The notes under the pieces are model-generated. The model worked only from the letters and a program-made list of their open reading frames with translations, had not been told where the DNA came from and ran no database searches. A stretch of 64,000 nt of DNA. Origin: a bacterium. GTDB taxonomy: Bacteria > Patescibacteriota > Patescibacteriia > Veblenbacterales > UBA10138. Location: positions 55,862 through 119,861 of the forward strand of contig JAGVEX010000015.1 of assembly GCA_020057885.1 (NCBI GenBank). Direction: 5' to 3'. Below, piece after piece: positions 25,130 to 57,201 of this stretch (positions are counted from its first letter, which is position 1; every line of letters begins with the position of its first letter). Position numbers and translations under genes: made by a program.

Positions 25130-25480
25130 TTAGATAAATTCAATTTGTACCATAGCCGCTCTATCGCCCTGGCGAGAAGCTAATTTGGTAATTCTAGTAT
25201 AACCACCTGCTCTTTTTACATAACGAGGTCCCAACACCTCCAATAACTTACGCACAGAGCCTTCAGTCGGCAAGCGCCTTATTAACAAACGGCGATTAGC
25301 CAGGCTAGGATTTTTAGCTATTGTAACTAAACGCTCAACATAAGAACGAATCACCCGCGCTTTAGCATTGGTGGTTTTTACTTTTTCATAAAGCACTAAA
25401 CTCTGCGCCAAATTTTTAATAAGGGCGCGGCGTGGACCAACTTTACGATCTAAAATTTTACCTGACTTACGATGTCTCAT
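25130..25480 (-). CDS. rplQ: 50S ribosomal protein L17
   Basis: MRHRKSGKILDRKVGPRRALIKNLAQSLV... Confidence 0.9.
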   Translation of the reverse strand: MRHRKSGKILDRKVGPRRALIKNLAQSLVLYEKVKTTNAKARVIRSYVERLVTIAKNPSLANRRLLIRRLPTEGSVRKLLEVLGPRYVKRAGGYTRITKLASRQGDRAAMVQIEFI

Positions 25481-25513
25481 AAAAACTAATAACTATAAAC
25501 TTAAAATTAATTA

Positions 25514-26305
25514 TTATTCCTTTTTGGGACGGCCTCGTTTCTTAGTTGGCTTAGCCTCCGGCTCAGCCTCAGACTCGTCTTCATTTTTAACTTCTACTTC
25601 TTGCTCTTGTGCGGATACCAGTTTCTGACCAACCACAACCATAAAATGATCTATTAAAATTTGGCTAGCTTGTTTAACAGCATCGAGTGGAGTAATACTG
25701 CCATCGGTAGTAACGTCCAAACTAAGCTTGTCATAATTTGTCATTTGCCCTACACGCACATTCTCAACGTTATAACCAACGCGACGGCAAGGAGTAAAAA
25801 TAGCATCCACTGCGATAGTGCCAATATCCAATTTACGGCCCTCATGACTTTCTACCGGTACGTATCCCCTGCCCTGTTCGATTGTAAATTCAACTTCTAA
25901 AGAAGCTTTTTTTTCTGTGAGTGTGGCTAAATGCAAATCTTTATTTAAAATTTCTACGTCACTAGTGGCGCTAATATCAGCGGCTGTAACCTCACGTTCA
26001 CCTGTAGCTTTAAGATTAACTTTGACTGGTTCGGCTGAATAACTTTTAAAACGAAGTTGTTTAACATTAAGCAAAAAATCCACCATATCCTCTTTCATAC
26101 CAACCAATGAGGAAAATTCATGATCAACGCCAATAATCTTAACAGCTGTAACTGCCGCGCCTGGCAAAGAAGATAATAACACGCGCCTTAGAGCATTACC
26201 CAAGGTAGTACCATAACCAGGATAACACGGCTCAATAACAATACGCGCTTGGTTGGTATCCAATTTTTCACTAGTAACATGTTGGGGAAGTGATAATGCC
26301 TCCAT
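25514..26305 (-). CDS. rpoA: DNA-directed RNA polymerase alpha subunit, NTD only, with an AT-hook-like basic tail instead of alpha-CTD
   Basis: The alpha-NTD is present (ARIVIEPCYPGYGTTLGNALRRVLLSSLPG). The protein ends after an acidic stretch with PTKKRGRPKKE and has no helix-hairpin-helix CTD. Confidence 0.85.
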   Translation of the reverse strand: MEALSLPQHVTSEKLDTNQARIVIEPCYPGYGTTLGNALRRVLLSSLPGAAVTAVKIIGVDHEFSSLVGMKEDMVDFLLNVKQLRFKSYSAEPVKVNLKATGEREVTAADISATSDVEILNKDLHLATLTEKKASLEVEFTIEQGRGYVPVESHEGRKLDIGTIAVDAIFTPCRRVGYNVENVRVGQMTNYDKLSLDVTTDGSITPLDAVKQASQILIDHFMVVVGQKLVSAQEQEVEVKNEDESEAEPEAKPTKKRGRPKKE

Positions 26306-26332: not shown

Positions 26333-26947
26333 TTAACGAGAGTAGAATTCTACTATTAATTTAATATCAAATGGCGGCTTAATTTGTTCAACATTTGGTA
26401 AGCCCACTAATTTAGCCATAAATTCCTTGGGATCAATTACCAACCAATCATAAACTACCGGCTGTTTACCCCAAGATTTAACCAAATTAATAAAATATGC
26501 TTTTTTAGCACTAATAGGATCAACACTAATAGTTTGACCAACTTTTACCGTATAAGATGATATATCAACCTTGCGCCCATTAACAAAAATATGGCCATGG
26601 TTAACCAGTTGGCGTGCGCCTTGGCGAGTTTTACTTAAACCCATACGATACACAATGTTATCGAGTCTGGTCTCAAGTAATTGTAATAACAGTACGTCGG
26701 TAGCGCCTTTTTTATTTATAGCCATTTCATAATAACGACGGAATTGACGCTCTAATATGCCATAAATCCAACGCGCCTTTTGCTTTTCTCGCAACTGCAA
26801 ACCGAATACTGTCAATTTGCCGCGCCCCTTAATACCATGAACACCTGGCGGATAATTGCGCTTAACTACTGGACACTTGTCAGTAGTACACATGCGCTCA
26901 CCTACGCGGCGGCACAAACGATGTTTAGGACCTATATGTCTTCCCAT
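26333..26947 (-). CDS. rpsD: 30S ribosomal protein S4
   Basis: MGRHIGPKHRLCRRVGERMCTTDKCPVVKRNYPPGVHG. Confidence 0.9.
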   Translation of the reverse strand: MGRHIGPKHRLCRRVGERMCTTDKCPVVKRNYPPGVHGIKGRGKLTVFGLQLREKQKARWIYGILERQFRRYYEMAINKKGATDVLLLQLLETRLDNIVYRMGLSKTRQGARQLVNHGHIFVNGRKVDISSYTVKVGQTISVDPISAKKAYFINLVKSWGKQPVVYDWLVIDPKEFMAKLVGLPNVEQIKPPFDIKLIVEFYSR

Positions 26948-28309: not shown

Positions 28310-28482
28310 GTCCTATGGTTTGCCTCTGGAGCTAAAATAAAATTATGCCTAGCCTGAGTTTGTATCTCACGGCCCGACATAACGTCATCTGAGCTTGAGG
28401 CTTCCCCAGAATTAACACGGTCTAACCCGTGTTTAATAATGTTTTGTTAACTGTTAAAACGCTACTCTAGTATAGAAGTTTT

Positions 28483-29163
28483 TCAATTAATGTCAAGGAT
28501 AATGGTGATAGCAGATGGGTTGGAAGGTGCTTTTTGGCTAATCTTAGCAAAAAAACTAGGGTATAAACTAACTGATACCAAAGCTACCCCCGGCTGATGT
28601 TTAATCCATTCTTCTATATCGGATAATTGTTTTCCAACTAAGCGATTTTCCCAATCTAATAGTGGAAACTGCGGGTAAAATTGAGCTTGCACAGCTGCAT
28701 TTACTGTAAAAGAACGCTCTGAACGATTTTTTATTGGATTCTGCCAGGTAACATTAAATGTACCCGGGCGCATTATTCTATGCTCACCGATTTTTTGATA
28801 TAAAGAATTGTTTATCAATTTATTAACAAATACATCATCAACTAGTAATTTTTTATCATCATCTAAATTGTAAAAACGCCAACCTGACCTAGCAACCTCA
28901 AACTCTTGGCTAGATGAAGTAACAAGTTGGCCAGGAATAACGCCTACGTTAAAATTAGGTTCTTTTAAATCTAAATCTATCTTAATTGGCACACCAATTT
29001 TAACTAATTCAAACTCCGGCTTAACCACCACGCGTACGCGCGGCCAAATCAAAGTGCTTAAACTAACAAGCAATAAAAATACTGCTACTAAAAAAATATA
29101 CAACCAAAATTTGCCACGCTTACTGACAGGCACTGTTTGTATATGAGCCGCATAATCAGTCAT
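28483..29163 (-). CDS. Hypothetical membrane-anchored protein
   Basis: 226 aa with an N-terminal TM; no family recognised. Confidence 0.5.
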   Translation of the reverse strand: MTDYAAHIQTVPVSKRGKFWLYIFLVAVFLLLVSLSTLIWPRVRVVVKPEFELVKIGVPIKIDLDLKEPNFNVGVIPGQLVTSSSQEFEVARSGWRFYNLDDDKKLLVDDVFVNKLINNSLYQKIGEHRIMRPGTFNVTWQNPIKNRSERSFTVNAAVQAQFYPQFPLLDWENRLVGKQLSDIEEWIKHQPGVALVSVSLYPSFFAKISQKAPSNPSAITIILDIN

Positions 29164-32211: not shown

Positions 32212-33153
32212 TTATTCCGTAACTAACTCGGCTAGCACAACATATCGCTTAAGCGCCGTACCAATAGGCCAGGAGGTCTGCAAGGTCAACAAACGGCTCT
32301 TGTAGTCATTTTGGCCCAAATAATGCGTGTCAGAAGCGGCTACCACCTTACTCTCGGTGACTTTATAAGTGTAAACCTTGCCATTATGATCGCTTAACAA
32401 AATTTCAGCGCCAATTTTTATTTTAGGTAATACAGCAAACACAGTTCTATACTTCCCATTGCTCCACCAATAATCACTGGAATGCCCAAAAATATACACG
32501 TTGCCATACTCACCAGGATTTACTGTACCTGGATAATGAACCACGCCGTTTTTCAAACCTGCCTGAAAAGAATCCTCGTTGGCCTGCTCAACATAAATTA
32601 CCGGCACTAATAAATTAAGACTAGAAATAGAAAGTGTGTCAGCGGACAAGCTTTCTGCTGGTTTAGTTTGAGACTTAGGTGAAACTAAGGTGGCAATAAA
32701 ATTATTAGCGTTGCTTAAATTAGGTACCAAATATCGGTGATAATCAACTGGATTAACATACCAAAGCTCGCCAAGATTTTGCACTTGAATAAATAATTTA
32801 CCACTCTGTTTTTTAGCAAAGCTAAGATTAAGTTTTGTACGAGCAGTAGAAGATGAATAGTCAATCTCCAAGCCGCCCATAGGAATACGAGCTAGATCAG
32901 CATTAGTAATTCCAATCGGTTTTAAATTTGCCGGCAAACTTAAAACTTTCTTTATAGAAGAAGCGTTATTAGAACTCTGATTTTGTTGATTATCGCTTTG
33001 TGCTTGGGTAGCGGTTGGTTGCAATTGAGACACTATTATCGGCTCAGTTGAGTATCTCAAATTAGCCCAAATATACTGGGCGTTAAATGCCACTAATGCA
33101 ACCACACTCAAAATTAAGGCCCAACCAATTGTCCGCCAAGGATTTGTATTCAT
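32212..33153 (-). CDS. Sortase-family protein whose predicted catalytic Cys is replaced by Ser (TLQTSWP instead of TLxTC)
   Basis: An N-terminal TM and linker precede VHYPGTVNPGEYGNVYIFGHSS (His motif). The segment LLTLQTSWP...KRY aligns to the TLxTC...R signature. The Ser codon is TCC at 32272-32274. It is adjacent to an LPRTG protein. Confidence 0.6.
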   Translation of the reverse strand: MNTNPWRTIGWALILSVVALVAFNAQYIWANLRYSTEPIIVSQLQPTATQAQSDNQQNQSSNNASSIKKVLSLPANLKPIGITNADLARIPMGGLEIDYSSSTARTKLNLSFAKKQSGKLFIQVQNLGELWYVNPVDYHRYLVPNLSNANNFIATLVSPKSQTKPAESLSADTLSISSLNLLVPVIYVEQANEDSFQAGLKNGVVHYPGTVNPGEYGNVYIFGHSSDYWWSNGKYRTVFAVLPKIKIGAEILLSDHNGKVYTYKVTESKVVAASDTHYLGQNDYKSRLLTLQTSWPIGTALKRYVVLAELVTE

Positions 33154-33158
33154 ATTAA

Positions 33159-35885
33159 TTAATTGCTAACCCAATCTTTACCAACTTCCTTAAAACCAAT
33201 GACAAATAAAGCCAAAACCGGCAAAGCTAATAATATCGCCATAGGAAAACCTGTACGGGGAAGCTCTGTTGTAACACCAAGAACTTTTGGTACAGGTGGT
33301 GTTGTGATCGTCACACTCGCACTTTTTATTGTAGAGCAACCAACGCCACCGTTAAATTTAGCATAAACTGTTTTAATTCCATCACCTGATAATAATATCC
33401 AACTATGTGTTGGGGCTGGTGTTTCATAACTAGAGCCACTAAGATTAGCATTATTACTCAAAGCTATACCAGTTATGGTACTAGGATAAGTAAGATTTAA
33501 TGTTACGTTTGTTCCTGTAACAACAGGCCCTTCTACAATAGAAAAAACAAAATTGGCTGGATTAAAACCAGTACAAAAATCTCCACCACCTCCGCCGCCG
33601 CCTCCACCTCCCCCACCTTGGTCATCGTTAATCACTACACAAGTTTTTGTTTCACCAGCGGCAATAGTACCAGAACAATCGGAACCTAAACTCTTGCTAT
33701 AACCGAGTGATGAAACTTCATCAACACTATAACTGCCAGCATCCAAAGTAACAGTAGTACCTGCTTCGTCACCAGCGAATGAAGCGCTGGAGACGTTAGT
33801 ACCAGTTACGTTCATAGTAAAGTCGGCAACTGTTTTAGTTTTACCATTATCATTAATCACGTGTTTTTTTACAATTAAAGTTGCAGAAGATGGGGGTGTT
33901 GGTACATCACTATTAGTAATGGTACAAGTTTTACTCTCACCAACTAACAAAGCTGTTACGCCAGTACTGTCGCAATCGCCACTAAAAACAGCATTATAAC
34001 CCGTAGGAGTGGTGTCTTCACTCACAGTGTAAGTTCCGGGCAATAAAGTGTAAGAAACGCCTGTTTCAGAACCTACTGCTGGAGAACCAGCCACTTCCAA
34101 AATACCTTGTTTTAAATGTAAATTAAAATCAGTTGAAGTCTTTGTGCCACCGTGAGTATTAATAACCAACTTAATCACTTTAATAATACCGTGACTGGGC
34201 GGTGGTGGAGCATCGTCATCATTCGTTATAGTACAGGTCTTAGTTTCACCAATCGCAATAGTACCAGCACAATCAGTACCTAAGGTTTTAGTATATCCAT
34301 CAACTGTAGTTTCATCTACGCTGTAACTGCCAGCATCCAAAGTAACAGTAGTACCTGCTTCGTCACCTGCAAATGAAGCACTGGAGACGTTGGTACCAGT
34401 TACGTTCATGGTAAAATCGGCAGCTGTTTTAGTTTTACCATTATCATTAATAACGTATTTTTTTACAATAAGTTGTGGTTGAATATCATCATTAGTTATG
34501 GTACAAGTTTTAGTTTCACCAATCGTAATAGTGCCAGTACATTCATCTGAAGTACTAGAAGTATAATCAGCTACTGCTGTTTCAGAAACTAAGTATGTGC
34601 CAGCATCTAGGGTAACAGTTGTACCGGTATCCGAACCCGCAAAACTAGCAGATGAAACATTAGTACCCATGATATTCATAGTAAAATCCGCAGGAACTTT
34701 TATTCCACCATTGTCATTTATCACTTGTTTTTTCACAATAAGCTGTGGTGGAATATCATCGTTAGTTATAGTACAAGTTTTAGTTTCAGAAACTGCTAAA
34801 ATAACTGTGCCGTCTGTTGCGCAATCACTGGTAATAGAAGTCTTGTTATAACCAACTGGCGCAGTATCTTCACTCACGGTGTAAGTTCCTGGTAATAAAG
34901 TGTAGGTAGTGCCAGTGGTAGACCCAACTATTGGCGAACTAGCAACATCCACACCGGTATCCATAACATGAAGCATAAAGTCAGCGGCTGTTTTAGTACC
35001 GCCGTTATCATTTACTACCTGTTTTTTTATAATTAACGTACCAGTAGTTGGCGGTGGTGGAGCATCATCATCGTTTGTCACGGTACAAGTTTTGGTTTCA
35101 CCAACTGCGATAGTGCCAGCGCAGTCTGTACCTAGAGCTTTGGTGTATCCATCAACTGCAGTTTCATCTACGCTGTAACTGCCAGCATCCAAAGTAACAG
35201 TAGTACCTGCTTCGTCACCAGCGAATGAAGCGCTGGATACGTTGGTGCCTGTTACATTCATAGTAAAATCGGCAGCTGTTTTAGTTTTACCATTATCATT
35301 AATCACGTGTTTTTGAACAATTAAAGTAGCTTTACAATCTTTTGTCACACTAGTGTGGGTGGTATTACTAGAAACCCAAACAGTAAAATTCCCATATTCC
35401 AATGATGTAGCACGAGCTATATTTGTAATATCAAACGTATCACAAGAACTTGGTGTATTTACTGCGGCTGTCCAAACAATTTGACCAGCTTGACCTGGTG
35501 TTAAAGTATGTGCGTTCCAGGTTAAAGTACGGCTACCACTTTGGTATAAAGGAATTGCATAATAAGCAGTTGATATATTGCTACTAGTAGTAGAGTTAAC
35601 AAAAGTTAAATTAACATCTACTACGTCCTGCACTTTAATACCACCGCCCGTACAATTGGCAGTACCAGTATTTTTTATATCTATAGTGTAAGTTAAAGTA
35701 TCACCCGGATTAGCTGTGGCCGAACTCACCTGCTTAGTAAGAGTGAGGATACATTGCCCCGTGGCATTAACAGATGTCGGCGCTATAGCAATGTTGGTAG
35801 ATACCAACCCTGTTATTAACAAAGTGGCAAAAATACCAATTGTCCACCACCGCCAAGGTAACTTTTTGAATTTAAATATAAACAT
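33159..35885 (-). CDS. LPXTG (LPRTG) cell-wall-anchored surface protein with DUF11-like N-domain, several near-identical prealbumin-fold (Cna-B/SpaA-like) repeats and a Gly12 linker
   Basis: 908 aa with an N-terminal signal. The unit LIVKKHVINDNGKTKTAADFTMNVTGTNVSSASFAGDEAGTTVTLDAGSYSVDE...TKTCT.TNDD recurs. The C-terminus LPRTG, a hydrophobic stretch and KEVGKDW form a sortase sorting signal. Confidence 0.8.
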   Translation of the reverse strand: MFIFKFKKLPWRWWTIGIFATLLITGLVSTNIAIAPTSVNATGQCILTLTKQVSSATANPGDTLTYTIDIKNTGTANCTGGGIKVQDVVDVNLTFVNSTTSSNISTAYYAIPLYQSGSRTLTWNAHTLTPGQAGQIVWTAAVNTPSSCDTFDITNIARATSLEYGNFTVWVSSNTTHTSVTKDCKATLIVQKHVINDNGKTKTAADFTMNVTGTNVSSASFAGDEAGTTVTLDAGSYSVDETAVDGYTKALGTDCAGTIAVGETKTCTVTNDDDAPPPPTTGTLIIKKQVVNDNGGTKTAADFMLHVMDTGVDVASSPIVGSTTGTTYTLLPGTYTVSEDTAPVGYNKTSITSDCATDGTVILAVSETKTCTITNDDIPPQLIVKKQVINDNGGIKVPADFTMNIMGTNVSSASFAGSDTGTTVTLDAGTYLVSETAVADYTSSTSDECTGTITIGETKTCTITNDDIQPQLIVKKYVINDNGKTKTAADFTMNVTGTNVSSASFAGDEAGTTVTLDAGSYSVDETTVDGYTKTLGTDCAGTIAIGETKTCTITNDDDAPPPPSHGIIKVIKLVINTHGGTKTSTDFNLHLKQGILEVAGSPAVGSETGVSYTLLPGTYTVSEDTTPTGYNAVFSGDCDSTGVTALLVGESKTCTITNSDVPTPPSSATLIVKKHVINDNGKTKTVADFTMNVTGTNVSSASFAGDEAGTTVTLDAGSYSVDEVSSLGYSKSLGSDCSGTIAAGETKTCVVINDDQGGGGGGGGGGGGDFCTGFNPANFVFSIVEGPVVTGTNVTLNLTYPSTITGIALSNNANLSGSSYETPAPTHSWILLSGDGIKTVYAKFNGGVGCSTIKSASVTITTPPVPKVLGVTTELPRTGFPMAILLALPVLALFVIGFKEVGKDWVSN
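33700..35330. repeat. Three near-identical intragenic nucleotide repeats of about 280 nt (about 33700-33880, 34200-34480, 35040-35330) in the LPXTG protein gene
   Basis: The three copies are nearly identical at the nucleotide level. Confidence 0.7.
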
Positions 35886-36004
35886 AAAATGTGATTTAAA
35901 TTAAAAATGAGATCCTATTAATAATTAAGATCCCTACATTCTTAACATATATAGTAAAAATAATCAATAATTTATTTTCCACAACAACTATACTCACGAA
36001 ACGA

Positions 36005-36898
36005 CTATTTATTTAAAGCGGCTCTGGTGATTGGTCCTACAAAACCAGTTGCGGTAATACCATTTTTACGCTGATAAGCTTGTACGGCTCTAAAAATAGA
36101 CCAACTAAAATAGGTTGATATTTTCCCTTTATAAAAGCCTAAGATCGTTAAACGTTTTTGCAATTCTTTTACATCATTATCCCACATTCCTAGCCACATA
36201 TTATGTGTGAAAGAAAAATTAACCACACCAGAAACTATACCTGAAATTTTAGGTGGTTTATTATTACCGTTATTATTGTTGCTATTGTTGTTATTACTGC
36301 CGTTATTATTATTATTGTTATTTGAATTATCATTATTTGTTGTACCACCGCCGCCACCGCTTTGTGTTGTAATTAAACCAAGCAAGGGGGTACTGGCAGT
36401 AAACAATGTTCCTTCGCCTGAAACGCCGACTTGAATATCAAATCCTACGCTGCCATTTTGATAATTATTATTTGCTGAATTATTAAATGTTACTGCAAAA
36501 TTATATTGCGTTTGTACGCCGCTTGCTATTTCCGAAAGATTTGTTACGTCATTGTCATACAAACTTCCTAAGGTGCCTATGTAAAGAGTTGCAGTATTTT
36601 GAGTGATAACAACATTCAACTGCGAAGCTAAATTATCATTATCAATAAACGAATTTAACTTTACACCAATAAGTTTTGGGGTTGAGGTATTGTTTGTTAC
36701 CTTAACATAACGAGTTACTGTATTGCCGGGCAAAAAATTTACTTCGCTAAACAGTGGTTTATATTCAAATTCAATTAAAATATTGGGTGCAACAGGTGTA
36801 GCTAAAGCTGAATGTGGCCAAACAAAAAATAATGAAAAAGCGCCAAGTATAACTAAGCTTAATTTTATAATATTAAATTTCTCAAAAAAACTATTCAT
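36005..36898 (-). CDS. Secreted protein with N-terminal beta-rich domain, poly-Asn/Gly/Ser low-complexity linker and C-terminal peptidoglycan-binding domain (PG_binding_1-like)
   Basis: Classical signal peptide (ALA|TP). The linker is NNNNNNNGSNNNNSNNNN. The C-terminus VKELQKRLTILGFYKGKISTYFSWSIFRAVQAYQRKNGITATGFVGPITRAAL matches the PG-binding repeat. Confidence 0.65.
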   Translation of the reverse strand: MNSFFEKFNIIKLSLVILGAFSLFFVWPHSALATPVAPNILIEFEYKPLFSEVNFLPGNTVTRYVKVTNNTSTPKLIGVKLNSFIDNDNLASQLNVVITQNTATLYIGTLGSLYDNDVTNLSEIASGVQTQYNFAVTFNNSANNNYQNGSVGFDIQVGVSGEGTLFTASTPLLGLITTQSGGGGGTTNNDNSNNNNNNNGSNNNNSNNNNGNNKPPKISGIVSGVVNFSFTHNMWLGMWDNDVKELQKRLTILGFYKGKISTYFSWSIFRAVQAYQRKNGITATGFVGPITRAALNK

Positions 36899-36906
36899 AA
36901 ATATTA

Positions 36907-37974
36907 TTAATTAATTGGCGCGGTGCCATCATTGGGTGTTAAAGGGACCAAGGTTGGTTCTGGTAAAATTGGGTCCTCTACTGGTGCTAAGGGATCAATT
37001 GGAGGAATTAATTCATCAGTTGGTGTAATTAGAGAAGTCGTTTCAATTACTGGATCGCTCGGAATTATAGGCTCGTTAACTAATACATCGGTGGATAAAA
37101 TTTCAATTACCGCATCTGGGTCAAGACTTTCTTGGGTGCCTAATACTTTTGGATTAATTACAGTGCCATCATCAATAATACTTGAACTGCGTGGTAGGCA
37201 CCAAGTACCAGCCGTAACAGTACCGCTTATTTGCGCGGTATCGGTAAAGTAGCCAACGCCATAACTCGGGGCTTCCAACTGCCAAGCTTTAAACAAAATA
37301 TTAAAATTACAAGCCTTGCCACGCAAACTCTCATTATTACTGGTAAGCTTTAAAGCAAAAGTCCAATCTTCTGGTGTGCTAAACTCAAAAGCCCCACTGC
37401 TAAATCCTACCAAAGAACCTGTATATACGGTGTTACCTTTTAGCATAGCTGTTAGTTCTAAAGCTACACATAAGTCTCCACTTACAACATCAGACTCAGT
37501 TGAATATTTAAAATTAATCGCGCCGGTTTGTGTTAATAATACTGGCAAGGCAGTGGTTTCATTGGGCTTAATAGCCAAATTACTGCCTGCTGGCTGATAC
37601 TCCCCTGCCACGGCATTCAAACTTAATGAAATGGTAGATAAATTATTATCTATTGACTCTTCGGTATCGCTAAAATAAGAACTAGTGCCAATTATTCCTG
37701 TTAATTCAGTTGCTAATAAGGCGATTATGGCCACTAGCGTGCCACCCTTCAAAACAAACCTTCTTAATAATATTCTATTTGCTTTACGGCGTTGTAATTT
37801 GTGTAAAATTATTTTGTAACCTCTATACACCCTGCGCTCAGACCGATACATAGCCAAAACCAATTTGCGCCCGCGTTTAAAATACAAAGCCACCGCTTTG
37901 TGTGCACGTCGAACATAGCGTTGTAACACTCTGCTTATTTTTCGCACTCGGCGTTGTAATTTTAGCTGACGCAT
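36907..37974 (-). CDS. SipW-cognate-signal family protein with an unusually long Arg/Lys-rich N-terminal region and a Pro-rich C-terminal tail
   Basis: A highly basic N-terminus of more than 35 aa precedes a TM, then GTSSYFSDTEESIDNN (SipW-cognate-like motif). The C-terminus is PIIPSDPVIETT...PILPEPTLVPLTPNDGTAPIN. Confidence 0.55.
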   Translation of the reverse strand: MRQLKLQRRVRKISRVLQRYVRRAHKAVALYFKRGRKLVLAMYRSERRVYRGYKIILHKLQRRKANRILLRRFVLKGGTLVAIIALLATELTGIIGTSSYFSDTEESIDNNLSTISLSLNAVAGEYQPAGSNLAIKPNETTALPVLLTQTGAINFKYSTESDVVSGDLCVALELTAMLKGNTVYTGSLVGFSSGAFEFSTPEDWTFALKLTSNNESLRGKACNFNILFKAWQLEAPSYGVGYFTDTAQISGTVTAGTWCLPRSSSIIDDGTVINPKVLGTQESLDPDAVIEILSTDVLVNEPIIPSDPVIETTSLITPTDELIPPIDPLAPVEDPILPEPTLVPLTPNDGTAPIN

Positions 37975-37983
37975 AAATTAAGC

Positions 37984-38559
37984 TTAAACTATCTTAGTTT
38001 CTGCTTTCTTTTTATTTCTTAGCTTAGCTATTTCCTGCCACACTTTTTTGCCTTCGTCGTACATAAGAATAAGTGCTGGCAAAATAACTAATACTGCAAA
38101 ACCAATCGGCTTTTTAGCCGCCGCCACACCATAACCAACGTAAGGCATACTGAATAGTGTTTTGCCAATTACATCGCGTCCGCGCACCTCACGCATATCT
38201 TGGTTATTATTGGCATCACCTTTGGTTAGATAAACTGGGCGACCAGAATCATTTTTTACTTCCACAATACGATGCGTAGTGGGCGGTTTAACTTTAGAAA
38301 ATGGTCCAAAAGTAATAATATCACCTACTTGATAACTACTAGCTGGTCTAACTACCACCACGCTGCCAGTTTTAATCGCCGGCTCCATGGAGCCCGATTG
38401 CACCACAAAAGCTTTAATTCCACCCGGTATGGGCAAAGCGGAAGAAATTAAGACCAACACAATAAACAGCGCTACGGCCAAAAACGCGTAGGAAAGTATT
38501 TTATAAATTGTATCAATAACTTTTTTCATAAATAAACTATTTTTTATTATGGCGCGCAA
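37984..38559 (-). CDS. sipW: Signal peptidase I, SipW/ER/archaeal type (S26B-like)
   Basis: An N-terminal TM is followed by VVQSGSMEPAIKTGSVVVV (catalytic Ser box) and TTHRIVEV (His box), then a C-terminal TM. At about 180-191 aa the size fits. Confidence 0.75.
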   Translation of the reverse strand: MRAIIKNSLFMKKVIDTIYKILSYAFLAVALFIVLVLISSALPIPGGIKAFVVQSGSMEPAIKTGSVVVVRPASSYQVGDIITFGPFSKVKPPTTHRIVEVKNDSGRPVYLTKGDANNNQDMREVRGRDVIGKTLFSMPYVGYGVAAAKKPIGFAVLVILPALILMYDEGKKVWQEIAKLRNKKKAETKIV

Positions 38560-41267
38560 TATTGCACGTGTTCTGCTATATTAACAGCTTCCAACCGATT
38601 TTTCATTGCTTCAAACTGAGTATAAGTAGCACTGGGATTATTCAGCAACGCATCAGCCTGCGCGGCTAATTGCGCTAAAGTAATACTTTCACCCGGCACT
38701 TGTCCTCCTCCTGCCCCAAAATAAGCAATACTAAATTTAAGCGCTAATAATTGCCCTCTTACTCTATTGCGCATGGTATCAGAATAACGGACAAATACTT
38801 CCTGAGCTTGAAATGCCGTACTAATTATTTCACTGCCTAAAATTTGCGGTAAAATCCATTGGCTAGGATGATTTATCCAATAACCTTTTGATTTAACTTG
38901 TAAATCTACACATTGCAACGGATCGTCATTAGTTACGGTGCAAGTTTTGGTTTCGCCTTGAACAATAATACCGCCGCAGCCCGCACCAATTGTTTTGGTG
39001 TAACCAAAGCTATCAACCTCGTCAACAATATAAGTGCCCGGCTCAACAGTAACTGCTGTACCATCTTCGGAACCAGGTAAATTAAGCACCATTCCGCTAT
39101 TCATACTTATTTTCATGGTGAAATCTCGGGCTTGTTTAGTGCCGCCATTATCATTAATAACGTGTTTTTTTACAAGCAAAATTGTATCACAGGTAGAACG
39201 CGTGCCTGTGGTATGTACTGTGTTACTCTCCACCCACTGCCAATTTAATTCATTAGCAGAAATTCGGGCAGTATTAGGAATATCAAATGGACCACAAGGC
39301 GGCTGCTTAATATTAGCGCTCCAGCTTACCCAACCCGATTGTCCCGGAACAACTGTGTGCGCGTTCCAGCGTAAAATACTGCCGTCAAATACCGAACCAT
39401 AATAACCCGCGTCAACATTACTGGAATGGGTTTCAGTAACATAAGTCAAAAGCGGATTAACCGTATCTTCTATCTTTACTCCCCCGCCCGTACAATTCAG
39501 CTTGCCAATATTCTTAAAATTAATAGTATAAGTTAACTGCTCACCCGGATTAGCAGTAGTTTTATTAACCTGTTTAGTAATTTGCAAAATACACTTAGGC
39601 GGCACGTAAACATCATTGTTTGTCACTATACAAGTTTTAGTTTCTCCGACCGCGATAGTACCAGCACAATCGGCGCCTAGAGTTTTATTATAATCAGCTA
39701 CAAAATTTTCATCCACGCTATAAGCTCCCGCGTCAAGCGTTACGTTAGTACCAGTTTCGGAGCCAGTAAACGAAGGCATTGAAACATTTGTACCAGTAAC
39801 ATTCATAGTGAAATCAGCTGCCAACTTAATACCGCCATCATCGTTAATTACGTGCTTTACTACTATCAAATGAGCGTGCTTATCCTCTGGCGGTTGGCAA
39901 ATAAAATTCGGATTATTGCGCGCTTGTTCAACTTGGAATGATAAATCAACTTTCAGCGAATCGGTTTGCGATTCGTTACCCATAGTAGAACCATTACAAT
40001 TAAGACTGTTAGCACTAATATTAGCGGTCAGAGTGCCGGCGCACCACGCTAAACCAACATAACTAGTTGTATCGCCAGCTAAAGCTCCAGCAACGGGCGT
40101 ATACAAGGCATAATATTTATTATCAAATGCCTCTTGAGCTGTTACAGGATTAGATAACAATGGTTCTTCGCCAGGCTCCCAAATATTATCGCCATCATCG
40201 CGCCATATAAATACTGTAACGTGTTCGCCGAGTTCGCCATTACCCGGGCCGTCGGTTGAATCTACCAATGCCTCTGGTTTGGTTAAACCATTATCGTCAT
40301 CTCTTAAATTGGTGGCCAAAAGACAGGCGTAAGCATCGTTTGTATCCACGTGCAAGCTTATAGTGTTCTCACCTTTATCGTTTGGCTTAACGCTATTTAA
40401 ATCAAAAAATTTAGTAGTAGGACCCAGATCAGTTAACTCCCAAGTGCTGGCGCAACTCTGCCCGACTAATGAATTCGAACGGCAATCTAAATTAGAAAGT
40501 TTTACTTCATCTAAAAATACTCCGTAACTTTCGTCCAGTCCGCCGCCCACAAACTCCACACGCGTAGTGGTGGATGTAGTAATTACTTCGTATTCATAAT
40601 ATTCCCAAGCTGTATTGCTAATAGCCGAACCATTGGCCGCCAAATCTGCCACTTGTGTACCGCCCAAATTAACTTTGAGTTTATTATTATCCGCTCCTGT
40701 GCCAGGCCGCGGCGAAAACTTAAAGCTTAAGCGATATTTATTGCCAACTACAGTATTCACATCCTGATAAATTTTTACCAAAGCCGGCTCGCCGTTTAAG
40801 CTACCATTTGGCCCATCCCAATCTGCATCAAGCTCGGCATATTGATTACCACTGCTTGGCAACCAACCATTCACGCCACGGTGAAACTCCACTTGAGCAA
40901 TCAGCGGCCTAATAGCCGACCCAAATGTTGTTTGGGTTCCTACCCATTCTACATTCCAACCAAGCGAGAGGGTACCCGAGGGGTAAATATCCCATTTTTT
41001 ATCCGAAGTTACTGTTGGATTCTCAAAATCACCATTTTGTAACAAATTAGTGCTGGTTGGTACGCAAGATTGTACCCACACGCCATCTTTACAAACTATG
41101 CCATTGTAATGCCCTTGGCTATCTACTTTAAGATTCAAATCACCCGCCACAAACGTATTGCCATTTGAAGATTCAGTATCACTAACAAAAGCACCAGTGC
41201 CACCGGTGATGATTATCACCCCCGCACCTATTGCTAATATTGCTAATAATAATTTCTTGGCTGACAT
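38547..41267 (-). CDS. Large secreted protein with SipW-cognate (TasA/camelysin-like) signal and N-module, followed by a DUF11-like domain and prealbumin-fold (Cna-B-like) repeats
   Basis: The N-terminus MSAKKLLLAILAIGAGVIIITGGTGAFVSDTESSNGNTFVAGDLNLKVDS matches the cog_SipW_sig-like pattern (GT.A.FSDTE.S..N.F.AG.L.L). Repeats such as LVKKHVINDNGGTKQARDFTM are shared with the LPXTG protein. Confidence 0.75.
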   Translation of the reverse strand: MSAKKLLLAILAIGAGVIIITGGTGAFVSDTESSNGNTFVAGDLNLKVDSQGHYNGIVCKDGVWVQSCVPTSTNLLQNGDFENPTVTSDKKWDIYPSGTLSLGWNVEWVGTQTTFGSAIRPLIAQVEFHRGVNGWLPSSGNQYAELDADWDGPNGSLNGEPALVKIYQDVNTVVGNKYRLSFKFSPRPGTGADNNKLKVNLGGTQVADLAANGSAISNTAWEYYEYEVITTSTTTRVEFVGGGLDESYGVFLDEVKLSNLDCRSNSLVGQSCASTWELTDLGPTTKFFDLNSVKPNDKGENTISLHVDTNDAYACLLATNLRDDDNGLTKPEALVDSTDGPGNGELGEHVTVFIWRDDGDNIWEPGEEPLLSNPVTAQEAFDNKYYALYTPVAGALAGDTTSYVGLAWCAGTLTANISANSLNCNGSTMGNESQTDSLKVDLSFQVEQARNNPNFICQPPEDKHAHLIVVKHVINDDGGIKLAADFTMNVTGTNVSMPSFTGSETGTNVTLDAGAYSVDENFVADYNKTLGADCAGTIAVGETKTCIVTNNDVYVPPKCILQITKQVNKTTANPGEQLTYTINFKNIGKLNCTGGGVKIEDTVNPLLTYVTETHSSNVDAGYYGSVFDGSILRWNAHTVVPGQSGWVSWSANIKQPPCGPFDIPNTARISANELNWQWVESNTVHTTGTRSTCDTILLVKKHVINDNGGTKQARDFTMKISMNSGMVLNLPGSEDGTAVTVEPGTYIVDEVDSFGYTKTIGAGCGGIIVQGETKTCTVTNDDPLQCVDLQVKSKGYWINHPSQWILPQILGSEIISTAFQAQEVFVRYSDTMRNRVRGQLLALKFSIAYFGAGGGQVPGESITLAQLAAQADALLNNPSATYTQFEAMKNRLEAVNIAEHVQYCAP

Positions 41268-41301
41268 TTGATAAATTGATTACTTAATATTATCTAAATT
41301 A

Positions 41302-42678
41302 TTAATTGAATGTTTGATTAGTATTCACGGCGTTGTATGTACTTGTGATAGGGCTAGACCATGTGAAATCAGAATATTCGTTTCCTGTTCCTTGAAGCTG
41401 TAAAGAATAACCTATAGGGGTAGTAGATGATTCAGTAACACCAATGTCAACCGACATCATACCAGCAGCCGGACCGTTTGCGGCTGTAAAACTACCACCA
41501 TAACTTAAAAATTTAACGACTGTATTATCCGACTTTACGAGTGCAAGACCATCAGGTGAACCATTCTGGACGCTAACCTTAGCAAACCACAATGTACCAA
41601 AACCTCCTTGTTGACTAGGAATTGTACTGGAAAGATTTATAGTGTCGTAACTTGCTTGATTGCTACCATTATACAAAACGACTTTCCAACCAATTAAATC
41701 CGTACCTGCAACGCCTGCAATTTCCACACCTTCATTGGCATCTGTCCCGGTATTGTCATAATGAATCTCATTAATCCATACCTTAGCTACCTCGCAAGCA
41801 TCCCCAATGCCGTTACTATCTGAATCTAGTTGGTCAGGATTAGAAATATTCGAACAATTGTCACAAACGTCCCCGACACCGTCCGCATCTGTATCTATTT
41901 GATCAGGATTATAAGTTGCAGGACAATTATCTCGCGCGTCAGCTATACCATCAACATCACCATCCACTGACAAAGGAATACATCGGAAATTGGTATTATT
42001 TCTGGCCTGCACTACATTAAAAGAAATATCACCAATCAGACTATCGGTTTGCACTTTATTTCCGATTCCAGCAGGTAAATTCCAAGAGACGCCAAGATAT
42101 CCAATTGTTCCGCTCGGCAATGCTCCCGTGCCTGTGGTTGAATCGTAAACCGGTAATACGCCGTTTATTGGATAACCAGTAGCCAATGTTTGCTCAGTTC
42201 CATTTTGGATATTGTCGCCAGCAACTCCTCCCCCTGTACCATCGTCTCTCCAAACAGTCCAAACCATAGTATTTTGTAATTCACCTTCGCCGGCTCCGCC
42301 AGTCGTATCAACCACACTTTCTGGTTCGGTTAATCCATTATCATCGCTAGTCAAATTGACAACTTCCGCGCAAACCCAGGCATCGTTGTTTATCACATGC
42401 AAACTAATAGTGTTCTCGCCGTAGTCGCCTGGCTTAACATCAGAAAAGTTAAAAAACTTATCACTAGTTGGAACCAAATCTTTCAACTTCCATAAACCAC
42501 ATTCGCTTGAGGCAACACCATTGTAACTGCACTGACTATCAACCTTAAGGTCAATCGCTCCGGCAGTAAAGGTATTACCAGTGGAAGTTTCAGTATCGCT
42601 AAACAAAGCGCTGGTACCAGCCACCACCACAGCCCCAACGGCTGCAAGAATGCTTAAACTTAAAATAATTTTCTTCAT
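41302..42678 (-). CDS. Secreted protein with SipW-cognate signal and TasA-like N-module, thrombospondin type-3-like Ca-binding repeats and a C-terminal lamin-tail domain (LTD)
   Basis: The N-terminus is MKKIILSLSILAAVGAVVVAGTSALFSDTETSTGNTFTAGAIDLKVDS. TSP3-like repeats follow (DGDVDGIADARDNCPATYNPDQIDTDADGVGDVCDNCSNISNPDQLDSDSNGIGDAC). The LTD-like segment is VWINEIHYDNTGTDANEGVEIAGVAGTDLIGWKVVLYNG. Confidence 0.75.
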   Translation of the reverse strand: MKKIILSLSILAAVGAVVVAGTSALFSDTETSTGNTFTAGAIDLKVDSQCSYNGVASSECGLWKLKDLVPTSDKFFNFSDVKPGDYGENTISLHVINNDAWVCAEVVNLTSDDNGLTEPESVVDTTGGAGEGELQNTMVWTVWRDDGTGGGVAGDNIQNGTEQTLATGYPINGVLPVYDSTTGTGALPSGTIGYLGVSWNLPAGIGNKVQTDSLIGDISFNVVQARNNTNFRCIPLSVDGDVDGIADARDNCPATYNPDQIDTDADGVGDVCDNCSNISNPDQLDSDSNGIGDACEVAKVWINEIHYDNTGTDANEGVEIAGVAGTDLIGWKVVLYNGSNQASYDTINLSSTIPSQQGGFGTLWFAKVSVQNGSPDGLALVKSDNTVVKFLSYGGSFTAANGPAAGMMSVDIGVTESSTTPIGYSLQLQGTGNEYSDFTWSSPITSTYNAVNTNQTFN

Positions 42679-42875
42679 ATAAATTAGAGTTAAACTAAAT
42701 TATTTTGGGCTATTGGCTACTAGCTATATGCTAATAGCTATTTAACGCCTCGGCTCTCTCCGCAAATTTTTTCGATTTACGAAGAGGAGCAGGCTTTAAA
42801 CGCCTAACGCGGTTATTGTTGTTTTTGTAACCAAATAAATGGTTAGAGCAACTAATTGCTTAGATATAACGATAA

Positions 42876-44258
42876 TTATGGTAACGGATTGTCGTCGTTC
42901 GTGATAGTACAAATAATGGCTTCGCCTTCATCAAGCGTAGCTGTACCACCGAGCACGGCTGGACACTTAATATTTCCAATAATAGATACGAAGGTGTAGC
43001 CCACGCGCCCTACCTCATTAATAGTGTGCGGAATGTTTGAATTTACCGCCACCGAGGTATTGTTTTGAACAAGGTTGCCGTCAATATTAAGGCCGAACAT
43101 AGTTGGTCCAGCGGTACCACCATTGTCATTAATCACGTTTTTTATAAGCGTGATATTACCAGGCAAGTCATTATTTACTATAGTGCAAGATTTGTTATCA
43201 CCTGCATTAAGAGTAACTTGACCAAACTGATCACAATCGGGTCCACTGAACGATGCTACATATCCCATAATACCTGTCTCGGTCACCACATAGTTACCTG
43301 GTGGTACCTGAACTGGTACGCCAGATGTAACTGGAAATGGTGTCATGTAATTATCAACAAATAATTGATAATCACCAACGACATTATTACCGCCATTATC
43401 ATTTACAATTTCTTTAGTAACTGTAATAGTTGCGAGTCGAGGTTTACCGTCGCAAGTGTAATTTGGATTGTGTCGAGCTTGTACAGCGCGGAAAGCAATA
43501 TCCATCGTCACGCCATCAGTTTGGCTTTCGTTGCCAAGCTGAGTACCGTTACAAGTAAACCCAGAACCCTGCGCTCCCAAAGGACTATCATAGTCGCCTG
43601 GTGTAACAGGATTAAGAGTCATTGTGCCATAGCACCAACCTTTGGCAATATAGTAAGTTTCGCCACCTAGCGCCGGGCCGGGTACACCGGTCCAAACGTT
43701 TGTATTGGCATCAGCCAAAACAGCTGAAAACTTTTTATCCTCACCAAATAAACTTAGGATGGTTTGCTCGCCGTCAGAAAGCAAGGTTTCGCCTTGTTCC
43801 AAAACATTGTCGCCATCATCCACCCACCAAACCATTTTAACCAAGTTGCCAAGTTCACCATCCCACGTATCATTCACGTCTTCTGGTGCGTCAACTATAA
43901 GCTCTGGTTCGGTAGATGAAATATCGTTGTTAGTTGTAAGCGACATATCCAAACACAAGTATGCGTCGTTGTTGTTAACGTGGAGAGAAATAGTATCCTC
44001 ACCCTCGTCATCTGGCTTTAGATCGGTAAAGTTGATAAGTAAGAGCCCGTTGCCTAAATCCGAAGGGCCGAAAGTAGTTATATCCGAAATCGCTCCGTTA
44101 TAGTAACTCTCGTTATCTACTTTAAGATCAATCGCGCCAGCCACAAAAACGTTACCGCTAGCTGTTTCGGTGTCGCTTAAGAAAGCGCTAGTCGCTCCAA
44201 AACCGACAACCACAGCTAAGGCTCCAATAACCGCTAAACTGAAAATTATTCTTTTCAT
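42876..44258 (-). CDS. Secreted protein with SipW-cognate signal and TasA-like N-module plus C-terminal prealbumin-fold repeats
   Basis: The N-terminus is MKRIIFSLAVIGALAVVVGFGATSAFLSDTETASGNVFVAGAIDLKVDN. C-terminal repeats include ITVTKEIVNDNGGNNVVGDYQLF...PGNYVVTETG..GY and ITLIKNVINDNGG. Confidence 0.75.
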   Translation of the reverse strand: MKRIIFSLAVIGALAVVVGFGATSAFLSDTETASGNVFVAGAIDLKVDNESYYNGAISDITTFGPSDLGNGLLLINFTDLKPDDEGEDTISLHVNNNDAYLCLDMSLTTNNDISSTEPELIVDAPEDVNDTWDGELGNLVKMVWWVDDGDNVLEQGETLLSDGEQTILSLFGEDKKFSAVLADANTNVWTGVPGPALGGETYYIAKGWCYGTMTLNPVTPGDYDSPLGAQGSGFTCNGTQLGNESQTDGVTMDIAFRAVQARHNPNYTCDGKPRLATITVTKEIVNDNGGNNVVGDYQLFVDNYMTPFPVTSGVPVQVPPGNYVVTETGIMGYVASFSGPDCDQFGQVTLNAGDNKSCTIVNNDLPGNITLIKNVINDNGGTAGPTMFGLNIDGNLVQNNTSVAVNSNIPHTINEVGRVGYTFVSIIGNIKCPAVLGGTATLDEGEAIICTITNDDNPLP

Positions 44259-54643: not shown

Positions 54644-56140
54644 TTATTTTATAAACACTACATTATTTTTACGAGCAGCAGCGAGTCCGAGTTGTAAACG
54701 TTCCTTACTCGCGGCATACAAAGTAAATAATTTATCGCCCTTTTTCACTTTATTGCCCCAATCGACATGTGTATGAATACCGGCGATTTTTTCGTGCGGT
54801 GCGCCCAAATTCATACAAATTTCATTAATCGCGCGATCGTGTATCAAAACAACTTTACCGGATTTTTTGGAATGAATTTCATAACGGAAAGCGCCCGTAG
54901 CAATTTCTTCTGATTTAATATTATAATTACCACCCTGCGCCTTAATAATCTCTTGCATTTTTTTCCAAGCCGCGCCATTTAACAATTGCTTTTGCGCAAT
55001 TTTTTTACCTTGTCCTTTGCGGCAATAACCCTTAAGCTCCAAAAGTTCACCAGCCAAATAAATTGATTTACGCTCTAAATCGTGCGGGCGTAATTTATGT
55101 TGCTGTAAAACGCGCAACACATCACGCGCTTCCAGCGCTGGCCCAATACCGCGTCCTATTGGCTCACGCGCCAAGGTTTTAATAACCTTTACTTTCATAT
55201 GGAACTTACGCCCAAGCCATTCAAACTTTTTCTGTAATTGATTGGCTGTGCGCATATTAGGAATTTTGGTAGTTTCGCCAATCGGCATATCAATAACCAA
55301 ATAATCCACCCCCATGGCCACTTTTTTAGCCATTATGGAAACTATCATTTTATCGTAAGGCTCAAGGGCTAACGGTCTTGAGATTTTTATAATTTTATCA
55401 TCGGCTGGGGCAATATTAAGCCCACCGCCCCACACCAAACAAGCTTTGGTTTTTTTAACTATTTCCTTAATCTGCTTCATGGAAAAACTTACCGGCGCCA
55501 ACACTTCCATCGTATCAGCAGTACCGGCTGGCGAAGTTATGGCGCGCGAAGACGTTTTGGGAATATAAATCCCGAGCGAGGCAATAATGGGAATCACCAC
55601 CATAGTTGTGCGGTTACCTGGCAAGCCGCCGACTGAATGTTTATCTACCACCTTTGTTGGCAGATCCATTTTTTCACCTGTATTGGCAATTGATTTGGCT
55701 AGATAATAAAGCTCGTCTTTGGAATACGGCTTAACAAAACCAGAGGCCACGAAATAAGTAATCTCGGGTATTGATAATTTATTTTGGGTTATATCAGAAA
55801 TAATTGAATGAATTTCCTCATAGCCCAAAGGCTTGCCCAACATTTTTTTCTTAATAGCCTGAATAGATGGTGGGCGCGATATAATAGATACTTCCACCAC
55901 GTCACCCTCCTCAATATTACGGCCGCGCCAAACCTCACGAAACAAGCCCACGCGCCCCGGCATTACTTTGGCTTTACTAGTATCAGCCGATACGACCAAT
56001 TTGGATCTATTACTCCATTTAAGCTCTATTCTATCGCCTGCCTGTATGCCTAAACTTTCGGCCTCGGCTTCATTAAGCACTGCAATAATTTCGTTGCCGG
56101 CGGAAAAATCTAATTTTTTTGACTTTAGATAAAATGACAT
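54644..56140 (-). CDS. AMP phosphorylase (thymidine phosphorylase family, archaeal DeoA-type)
   Basis: 498 aa. An N-terminal extra domain precedes the pyrimidine-nucleoside phosphorylase core (DKHSVGGLPGNRTT...SSRAITSPAGTADTMEVL). It is adjacent to an R15P isomerase. Confidence 0.7.
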   Translation of the reverse strand: MSFYLKSKKLDFSAGNEIIAVLNEAEAESLGIQAGDRIELKWSNRSKLVVSADTSKAKVMPGRVGLFREVWRGRNIEEGDVVEVSIISRPPSIQAIKKKMLGKPLGYEEIHSIISDITQNKLSIPEITYFVASGFVKPYSKDELYYLAKSIANTGEKMDLPTKVVDKHSVGGLPGNRTTMVVIPIIASLGIYIPKTSSRAITSPAGTADTMEVLAPVSFSMKQIKEIVKKTKACLVWGGGLNIAPADDKIIKISRPLALEPYDKMIVSIMAKKVAMGVDYLVIDMPIGETTKIPNMRTANQLQKKFEWLGRKFHMKVKVIKTLAREPIGRGIGPALEARDVLRVLQQHKLRPHDLERKSIYLAGELLELKGYCRKGQGKKIAQKQLLNGAAWKKMQEIIKAQGGNYNIKSEEIATGAFRYEIHSKKSGKVVLIHDRAINEICMNLGAPHEKIAGIHTHVDWGNKVKKGDKLFTLYAASKERLQLGLAAARKNNVVFIK

Positions 56141-56160
56141 AAATAAAAGCTTCGCTTTTA

Positions 56161-56175
56161 CCCCGCGGAGCGGGG
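56161..56175 (-). terminator. GC hairpin (CCCCGC-GGA-GCGGGG) between the R15P isomerase and AMP phosphorylase genes
   Basis: Read directly. Confidence 0.35.
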
Positions 56176-56268
56176 TGGTCCGCCACGGCGAACCAAAATA
56201 CTAAATTCGAAATCCCTGCCTACCGGTAGGCTGGCTAAACTCTAAACAACATATGAATAAAAAATTAA

Positions 56269-57201
56269 TTATTTAGATAGCCAAGGATAATGCTGTTTAA
56301 CTAATTTTACCACTTGCTTGGGTTTAATTATACCAAATTCACAAATAATACCAGTAATATACTTAGCAGGCACTTTATCAAAGGCATAATTTATTATTTT
56401 TGTGCCGCGTGGCGCATGCGGCCACAGCTCTTGCCGCGGGCGCAATTCAATTTTACTCTCCCCTTTCATATCTGCCTTTAAAAGTGTAGCGGCAATATAA
56501 ACTGGAATTTTAGAATCATAAGCCGCTAAAGCAATGCCAAAACTACCAATTTTATTTAACACCGACCCATCGCGTGCTATGCTATCAGCGCCCAATAAAA
56601 CTAAATTGATTTTAACATCATCCCCCGAGTGGTTAGAAACCAACCAGGCCGCTGCACTGTCGGCTACCATTGCACAGGGTATTTTAGAGTGACGCAAATG
56701 CTTGTCAGTAATATGACCTTGAAACAAAGGCCTGGTTTCGGTGTGATAAACTTTAAATCTTTTCCCCTTGCGATGCGCGGCCAACAAAACTTTTTCCGCC
56801 AATGAAGAATGGCAATGTGTAAAAATATTTCTTTTGGCGGTAAGCGCCACAACTCCGGCGTGACTTAATTTATTTTCAGCTTGTTTTAAATAAGCTTCCA
56901 ATTTAACCACCAGTTGTTCAACTAATTTATTCCAATTTGATTTATTTAAATTAACTGCTCGCTTTTTTAATTCATATACAAACCACCGACTAATATTGCG
57001 TGCCAACGGTTCGGTAGGTCTTAAATTAGCCAAGTCTTCCTGTATTTTGGCTAGACTTTTCCAATCGGCTTTGGTAGTTGGTATTTTTTCAGATTTAGCA
57101 TAATGCGACAAAGCCTGCAAAGTGGTTTGCGCTACCAGTGTTGCGCCCTGAATATGAACACTTAACAAATCCTTCTTAAAATTCTTGAGGGAGTTTGACA
57201 T
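56269..57201 (-). CDS. Ribose-1,5-bisphosphate isomerase (eIF-2B alpha/beta/delta-like, e2b2 family)
   Basis: 310 aa. The C-terminal LLGADSIARDGSVLNKIGSFGIALAAYDSKIPVYIAA is typical of the e2b2/MtnA family. Confidence 0.65.
   Translation of the reverse strand: MSNSLKNFKKDLLSVHIQGATLVAQTTLQALSHYAKSEKIPTTKADWKSLAKIQEDLANLRPTEPLARNISRWFVYELKKRAVNLNKSNWNKLVEQLVVKLEAYLKQAENKLSHAGVVALTAKRNIFTHCHSSLAEKVLLAAHRKGKRFKVYHTETRPLFQGHITDKHLRHSKIPCAMVADSAAAWLVSNHSGDDVKINLVLLGADSIARDGSVLNKIGSFGIALAAYDSKIPVYIAATLLKADMKGESKIELRPRQELWPHAPRGTKIINYAFDKVPAKYITGIICEFGIIKPKQVVKLVKQHYPWLSK

Follow-up and report, generated by a model that had tools for sequence, protein, structure and literature searches.

An RNA polymerase alpha subunit without the C-terminal domain and with a conserved AT-hook-like tail in Patescibacteria

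[quoted passage not shown] The minus-strand ORF translation contains EQEVEVKNEDESEAEPEAKPTKKRGRPKKE, and the C-terminal end of the protein reads VVGQKLVSAQEQEVEVKNEDESEAEPEAKPTKKRGRPKKE, followed by tandem TAA TAA codons. The start codon, an ATG at 26305, agrees with the invariant M1 in an alignment of 35 homologues. A database search has identified Kerfeldbacteria and Veblenbacteria as the closest named relatives of the window organism.

Table 1. Positions of the features discussed in the text. All positions are those of the window, except in the last row, where they are those of the named loci of relatives.
Feature	Position	Strand	Basis or remark
rpoA coding sequence	25514..26305	(-)	Translation: 263 codons and a TAA stop
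Second in-frame TAA after the rpoA stop	25511-25513	(-)	Sequence
Alpha N-terminal domain (NTD) with insert domain, residues 1-228	25622..26305	(-)	Dimerisation and RNAP assembly; Pfam, structure match, AlphaFold2
Linker KLVSAQEQEVEVKNEDESEAEPEAK, residues 229-252, acidic and disordered, no conserved column	25550..25621	(-)	pLDDT and relatives
AT-hook KKRGRPKK, residues 255-262	25520..25543	(-)	P253-T254 before, E263 after; conservation
Gap between rpoA stop and rplQ start, 33 nt	25481..25513	(-)	Sequence and ORF list
rplQ (L17), downstream operon neighbour	25130..25480	(-)	ORF translation
rpsD (S4), upstream operon neighbour	26333..26947	(-)	ORF translation
S9, 185 aa	24187-24744	(-)	
S11, 156 aa	26974-27444	(-)	
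Promoter-like site TTGACA-16-TATACT	28496..28469	(-)	11 of 12 consensus positions
Promoter-like site with following leader of ~160 nt, then infA	28310-28496	(-)	
Alanyl-tRNA synthetase, 634 aa	29175-31079	(-)	Pfam
Sortase and large surface proteins	32212-44258	(-)	
AMP/thymidine-phosphorylase-like and IF-2B/e2b2 genes	54644-57201	(-)	
TrwB/VirD4-like coupling ATPase	57219-59081	(-)	
Bare-type rpoA loci of relatives	L009 6001-6687; L014 1182-1889; L016 4714-5397; L017 6001-6669		

The content of the window is typical of Patescibacteria (CPR), and its GC content is 35-43%. From about 19.9 kb onward nearly all genes are on the minus strand, and the GC skew is persistently negative. No tRNA, no rRNA and no Rfam family at threshold came out of the Rfam and tRNA scans, which covered all 64 kb. 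A sortase gene adjoins genes for three large SpaA_2/DUF11 surface proteins with a prealbumin-like fold and for a thrombospondin-repeat protein, and this is likely to be a pilus or adhesin cluster of the kind typical of episymbiotic CPR. An AMP/thymidine-phosphorylase-like gene lies beside an IF-2B/e2b2 (ribose-1,5-bisphosphate isomerase-like) gene, and the two are an archaeal-type nucleotide salvage pair common in CPR. A further gene encodes a TrwB/VirD4-like coupling ATPase with a treble-clef zinc finger.

Pfam detects in RpoA both the insert domain (PF01000, E = 4.8e-30, residues 55-171) and the dimerisation domain (PF01193, E = 4.6e-24, residues 25-221), in agreement with the first-pass annotation, which had described a product of about 263 aa with a normal NTD. 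Two NCBIfam equivalogs score above their cut-offs, NF003519 with 288.2 bits (cut-off 277) and TIGR02027 with 274.3 bits (cut-off 227.8), and the same scan gives a weak match to NF001988. The NCBIfam rpoA models are 298-344 positions long, and they match this protein only over model positions 1 to about 248; six of the eight sub-models for bacterial RpoA (PRK05182) score under their cut-offs because the portion corresponding to the alpha C-terminal domain (CTD) is missing. The best relative of solved structure, B. subtilis alpha (6wvj, E = 1.2e-66), matches residues 16-245 only, and AlphaFold2 with a 36-sequence alignment predicts the NTD confidently, with a pLDDT of about 90 up to residue 230. 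No match to the alpha-CTD family PF03118 is found in RpoA even at E <= 10, and its absence had been predicted beforehand. The protein is thus an RpoA by its NTD, its equivalog scores and its synteny, and it departs from the family in having no CTD. The intactness of the NTD sequence indicates that the subunit still dimerises and scaffolds the beta and beta' subunits.

Past the NTD, the chain runs through an acidic linker of about 25 aa into the AT-hook. An acidic stretch followed by an AT-hook-like end, PTKKRGRPKKE, had already been read here, and these peptides and their coordinates agree with the translation. AlphaFold2 gives a pLDDT below 50 for residues 233-256, and the pLDDT averages 38, 30, 42 and 44 in the successive 10-residue blocks that run from residue 231 to the C-terminus. 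The tail is accordingly predicted to be disordered, with the AT-hook falling in the disordered segment. The hook has the G-R-P core, the preceding Arg and the Lys or Arg residues on both flanks by which an AT-hook is defined in sequence. The Pfam AT_hook model PF02178 aligns with residues 254-262 at 11.6 bits (E = 0.28), below its gathering score of 17.4, and it matches 26 of 36 relatives with a best E of 0.013, the gathering score being reached by none; such a sub-threshold score is expected from a single copy of eight residues. Neither the window nor about 250 kb from 17 hook-type loci contains any ORF other than rpoA in which a GRP has basic flanks. Judged from these sequences, the AT-hook is weak as a single Pfam match and far beyond chance as a conserved feature.

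The database searches yielded 346 pooled proteins having a full NTD, and 122 of them, which are 44-90% identical and come from independent assemblies, carry a GRP tail. The residues of the hook in these 122 proteins are K(119)-K(122)-R(121)-G-R-P-K(118)-K(122), with G, R and P present in 122/122. Conservation of the KRGRPKK tail in related genomes, which the first-pass annotation had put forward as a check, therefore holds for the core. Within the alignment of 36 proteins, K256, R257, G258, R259, P260 and K262 are invariant. Each of the 122 tails contains one GRP and no more, and the hook lies 3-11 residues from the C-terminus in all of them. The linker of the 122 relatives is 20-61 aa long (median 32), consists of Asp or Glu at 32% of its residues and has a median net charge of -6, and it is unalignable, with zero conserved columns. 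At the nucleotide level, the hooks of 17 loci together use every codon for Arg (six), for Gly (four) and for Pro (four). Since synonymous codons vary so freely, selection acts on the peptide and not on a nucleic-acid signal, and a conserved DNA or RNA element at this position, such as an rplQ leader or a ribosome-binding site, was ruled out for the same reason. These alignments indicate that the hook is under strong purifying selection at the protein level and that the linker is constrained only in its acidity and flexibility. Degenerate hooks, namely KKKIGRPKK, SKRGRHKK, KKRGKVKK and KKKKSRPKK, are seen inside the hook clades.

Other terminal differences are found among the neighbouring genes. 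The ribosomal proteins S9 and S11 have long N-terminal extensions that are rich in Lys, Thr and Pro or are basic (for example ...APRRRAKKKRQ), and these look like disordered basic add-ons akin in style to the RpoA tail. Alanyl-tRNA synthetase retains its catalytic and tRNA_SAD domains and has no C-terminal DHHA1/C-Ala region in Pfam, an apparent further loss of a terminal domain.

The RpoA proteins of CPR fall into four C-terminal types. The CTD is kept in type (a), found in Saccharibacteria-labelled MAGs, Doudnabacteria and Woykebacteria. An acidic linker is followed by an AT-hook in type (b), found in Veblen-, Kerfeld- and Kuenenbacteria and some Parcubacteria, and by a lysine-rich tail such as KPKKKKASKKK in type (c), found in Uhr- and Magasanikbacteria and Minisyncoccota. 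Type (d) is a nearly bare NTD of 233-236 aa, found in Falkowbacteria and the Parcubacteria MAG GW2011_GWA2_40_23; it ends 4-14 residues past the NTD without a basic tail, which implies an RNAP whose alpha would lack any C-terminal element in contact with DNA. In a neighbour-joining tree of the NTD, the hook and lysine-rich types are intermingled, and five CTD-bearing proteins of the Doudnabacteria type are sister to the 55-member hook clade containing the window protein. The nesting of the Doudnabacteria type among hook clades has a bootstrap value of 60%, and hook monophyly has one of 10%. The Doudnabacteria-type proteins P0066, P0070, P0081, P0085 and P0120 keep the CTD on linkers that are basic and not acidic, and their NTDs are 61-62% identical to that of the window RpoA, a value above that of many hook-type proteins. 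Many CPR-like loci, among them L003, L009, L017 and L018, bear titles such as 'uncultured Gammaproteobacteria bacterium (binchicken)', and since their RpoA sequences and synteny resemble those of Patescibacteria, these titles are probable taxonomic mislabels. Since sister lineages have lysine-rich tails or none, comparison of the sequences shows the hook as one of several solutions, and neither AT-specific reading nor, given the bare forms, a tail as such is indispensable.

The DNA upstream of promoters was also inspected. Upstream of -35-like sites in hook-type loci, A/T content is no more than background, 65% against about 60% for the genome, a figure taken from 27 sites in an A/T-rich background that are too few to compare tail types. 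The strongest promoter-like site near the operon lies within the 3' end of the upstream ORF and is followed by a leader and infA; no obvious proximal A/T tract accompanies this one site, and Rfam finds no known leader or riboswitch before infA. The GC content of the loci has a median of 0.41 for the hook type and 0.47 for the lysine-tail type (p = 0.003, with kinship ignored). A composition proxy based on GARP/FYMINK in 122 versus 42 proteins did not reproduce an association with GC (p = 0.40), and the idea that hook tails are tied to low genome GC was dropped because the smaller p value was not repeated in this larger set.

The alpha-CTD binds UP elements, mediates class I activation by CRP-type activators and contacts sigma region 4 and NusA. 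The first-pass annotation had proposed that the tail is a minimalist functional replacement of this domain. The structural part of that proposal stands, in that the NTD is normal, the CTD is gone and an acidic linker with an RGRP core is in its place, whereas the functional part is what we infer from sequence, structure prediction and analogy. In evolution, the globular alpha-CTD would have been swapped for a disordered tail made of an acidic spacer of about 25 residues and a single AT-hook. Two such tails per RNAP would leave the NTD where the alpha linker normally does, on the upstream face of the holoenzyme, and an extended spacer could reach up to roughly 80-90 Å. We favour, with some reserve, the reading that the AT-hook contacts the minor groove of A/T-rich DNA upstream of promoters. 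The purifying selection on the hook, the predicted disorder of its tether and the precedents of WhiB7 and CarD make reading of A/T-rich DNA the best-supported interpretation. The hook would thereby give a boost in promoter binding like that of an UP element and independent of activators, with a sequence-biased affinity as for the alpha-CTD on UP elements. A single AT-hook alone binds DNA weakly. The acidic spacer probably prevents the tail from settling on the DNA backbone, and it may reduce binding that is not specific, like the acidic segments of HMGA and CarD. In such a scheme, the reading of UP elements would be replaced and the docking of activators, that is, class I activation and the contact with sigma region 4, would be lost. 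The loss of activator docking fits the small regulator repertoire of CPR. It also fits the notable absence of CRP/FNR-type activators from CPR (PMC12531629).

A short rpoA could in principle be an artefact of a frameshift or misassembly, or one half of a split gene whose CTD is encoded elsewhere, and the CTD scan of this genome, which spans the 64-kb window, gives such a reading some room. The scan used a custom CTD HMM built from six CTD-bearing relatives and the E. coli CTD sequence. In the window, read in all six frames, neither this HMM (best E = 1.5) nor tblastn (best E = 0.75) found a separate CTD. The HMM also detected nothing in the 6 kb on either side of rpoA at 41 loci of CTD-less relatives, while it matched 41 of 41 CTD-bearing loci as a positive control; the scan of related loci covered about 0.9 Mb. 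A protein search with a CTD-only query returned no candidates of any kind, and hence no weight is placed on it with regard to stand-alone CTD proteins. We know of no route by which an untethered CTD would join RNAP. Within the gene, the tandem stops are followed by rplQ after a gap of only 33 nt, so that there is no coding room for a hidden CTD. Moreover, the proteins from the database search include more than 100 RpoA of Patescibacteria, 253-283 aa long, in which PF01000 and PF01193 are the sole domains, and the short form recurs with identical architecture in more than 120 independent assemblies, the rpoA of some CTD-less relatives being on contigs of 0.5-1.3 Mb; recurrent frameshift or misassembly is thereby excluded. 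Both a CTD in a separate ORF nearby and a truncation through assembly error or frameshift had been raised in the first-pass annotation, and neither is borne out by these searches, so that an artefact or a split gene is highly improbable. We are almost certain that this rpoA encodes a genuine CTD-less alpha with an AT-hook under selection.

The main rival to minor-groove reading of A/T-rich DNA is that the tail is a non-specific polycationic tether to DNA, which would raise the general affinity for DNA, the association with the nucleoid or the one-dimensional search for promoters and would read neither A/T tracts nor UP-like elements. The lysine-rich tails that sit on the same acidic spacer in Uhrbacteria, Magasanikbacteria and Minisyncoccota, their interleaving with hook clades in the NTD tree, the degenerate hooks within those clades and the lack of a GC association in the larger data set are all consistent with such a tether. 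Charge alone, however, needs neither an invariant Gly, Arg and Pro in every one of the 122 tails nor a single copy at a fixed distance from the C-terminus, and Lys and Arg are not freely swapped inside the core, so that we consider the tether rather unlikely. It is also conceivable that the target of the hook is not promoter DNA but nascent or structured RNA, another factor in transcription or translation, or, in an autoinhibitory switch, the acidic spacer of the same chain. GRP-type hooks also bind RNA, HMGA tails reportedly self-interact and resemble the acidic spacer and basic end seen here, and no promoter-upstream signal was found at the 27 sites and the one site near the operon. On the other hand, the tail sits at the attachment point of the CTD, a domain with the conserved task of binding the minor groove upstream of -35. 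In addition, it lacks the basic clusters that extended RNA-binding hooks have 12-15 residues to each side of their core, its upstream flank is acidic, and no candidate partner is evident within the window. A target other than promoter DNA is therefore less probable still than the polycationic tether, and contact of the AT-hook with A/T-rich promoter-upstream DNA is the reading that we prefer.

What is new here is a bacterial RNAP alpha whose predicted DNA-binding C-terminal module is an AT-hook. In the openly searchable full-text literature, with subscription-only literature lying outside the search, we found no publication that connects Patescibacteria or CPR with the alpha-CTD or with an AT-hook in RpoA. 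There is the tentative possibility, to which we give somewhat less than even weight, that in a large part of CPR the alpha-CTD, a module regarded as universal in bacteria, has been discarded and replaced, possibly repeatedly, by a minimal disordered tail with an AT-hook, by a lysine tail like that of histone H1 or by nothing, and that promoter recognition there is distinct and largely independent of activators, the RNAP core itself bearing a eukaryote-style AT-hook. If the preferred reading is true, the 8-residue hook would be the smallest known DNA-reading element within an RNAP core subunit. A large and environmentally abundant bacterial radiation without the alpha-CTD would change which features of promoter recognition are taken to be shared by all bacteria. 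It would also matter for annotation and marker-gene work, since the HMMs for RpoA presume a CTD.

Compared with the canonical RpoA of E. coli and B. subtilis, the protein has the same NTD and the same position in the operon, and it is predicted to carry likewise, on a flexible tether at its C-terminal end, an element that binds the DNA minor groove, in two copies per enzyme. It differs in that the helix-hairpin-helix CTD of about 80 aa (PF03118) is absent and its place is taken by an AT-hook of 8 residues, borne on a linker that is longer and acidic, which leaves activators, sigma region 4 and NusA without a folded surface to contact. An alpha-like assembly domain that lacks an alpha-CTD is also what archaeal RpoD and eukaryotic Rpb3/AC40 have, whereas the present sequence is clearly bacterial, as the rpoA equivalogs are passed, and carries a predicted DNA-binding hook in addition. 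HMGA1/2 share the R-G-R-P core with Lys/Arg flanks, the intrinsic disorder and an acidic segment in the same polypeptide, but their hooks number three, and they act as free architectural proteins of chromatin and not as subunits of a polymerase. When the tail is compared with an HMGA-like domain, the acidic segment by the hook is present, and a single GRP is found where such a domain has three to four hooks.

Two bacterial systems, which are the nearest analogues of this tail, provide precedents for an AT-hook at a promoter. Mycobacterium WhiB7 is bound to region 4 of sigma-A, and the AT-hook at its C-terminus occupies the minor groove at an AT-rich motif (PMC10243135). WhiB7 is, however, a separate, inducible Fe-S factor that docks on sigma, whereas the hook here belongs to a constitutive core subunit in two copies, and Pfam finds no Wbl domain in the protein. 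Myxococcus xanthus CarD consists of an RNAP-binding domain, an acidic segment and RGRP hooks, and its binding site is AT-rich and lies upstream of the promoter on which it acts, where it maximises activation; its hook domain is functionally replaceable by other basic disordered domains and is interchangeable in this way in related species (PMC4374960). The order of an RNAP-associated folded domain, an acidic disordered segment and a basic RGRP hook is the same in the two proteins, and the interchangeable basic tails of CarD parallel the alternation between hooks and lysine-rich tails in the RpoA of CPR. In contrast, CarD has four hooks, binds beta and CarG and is an accessory protein confined to myxobacteria, while a single hook is fused to alpha here. 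By analogy, the precedents of WhiB7 and CarD make it plausible that the hook of this alpha subunit acts on A/T-rich DNA upstream of promoters.
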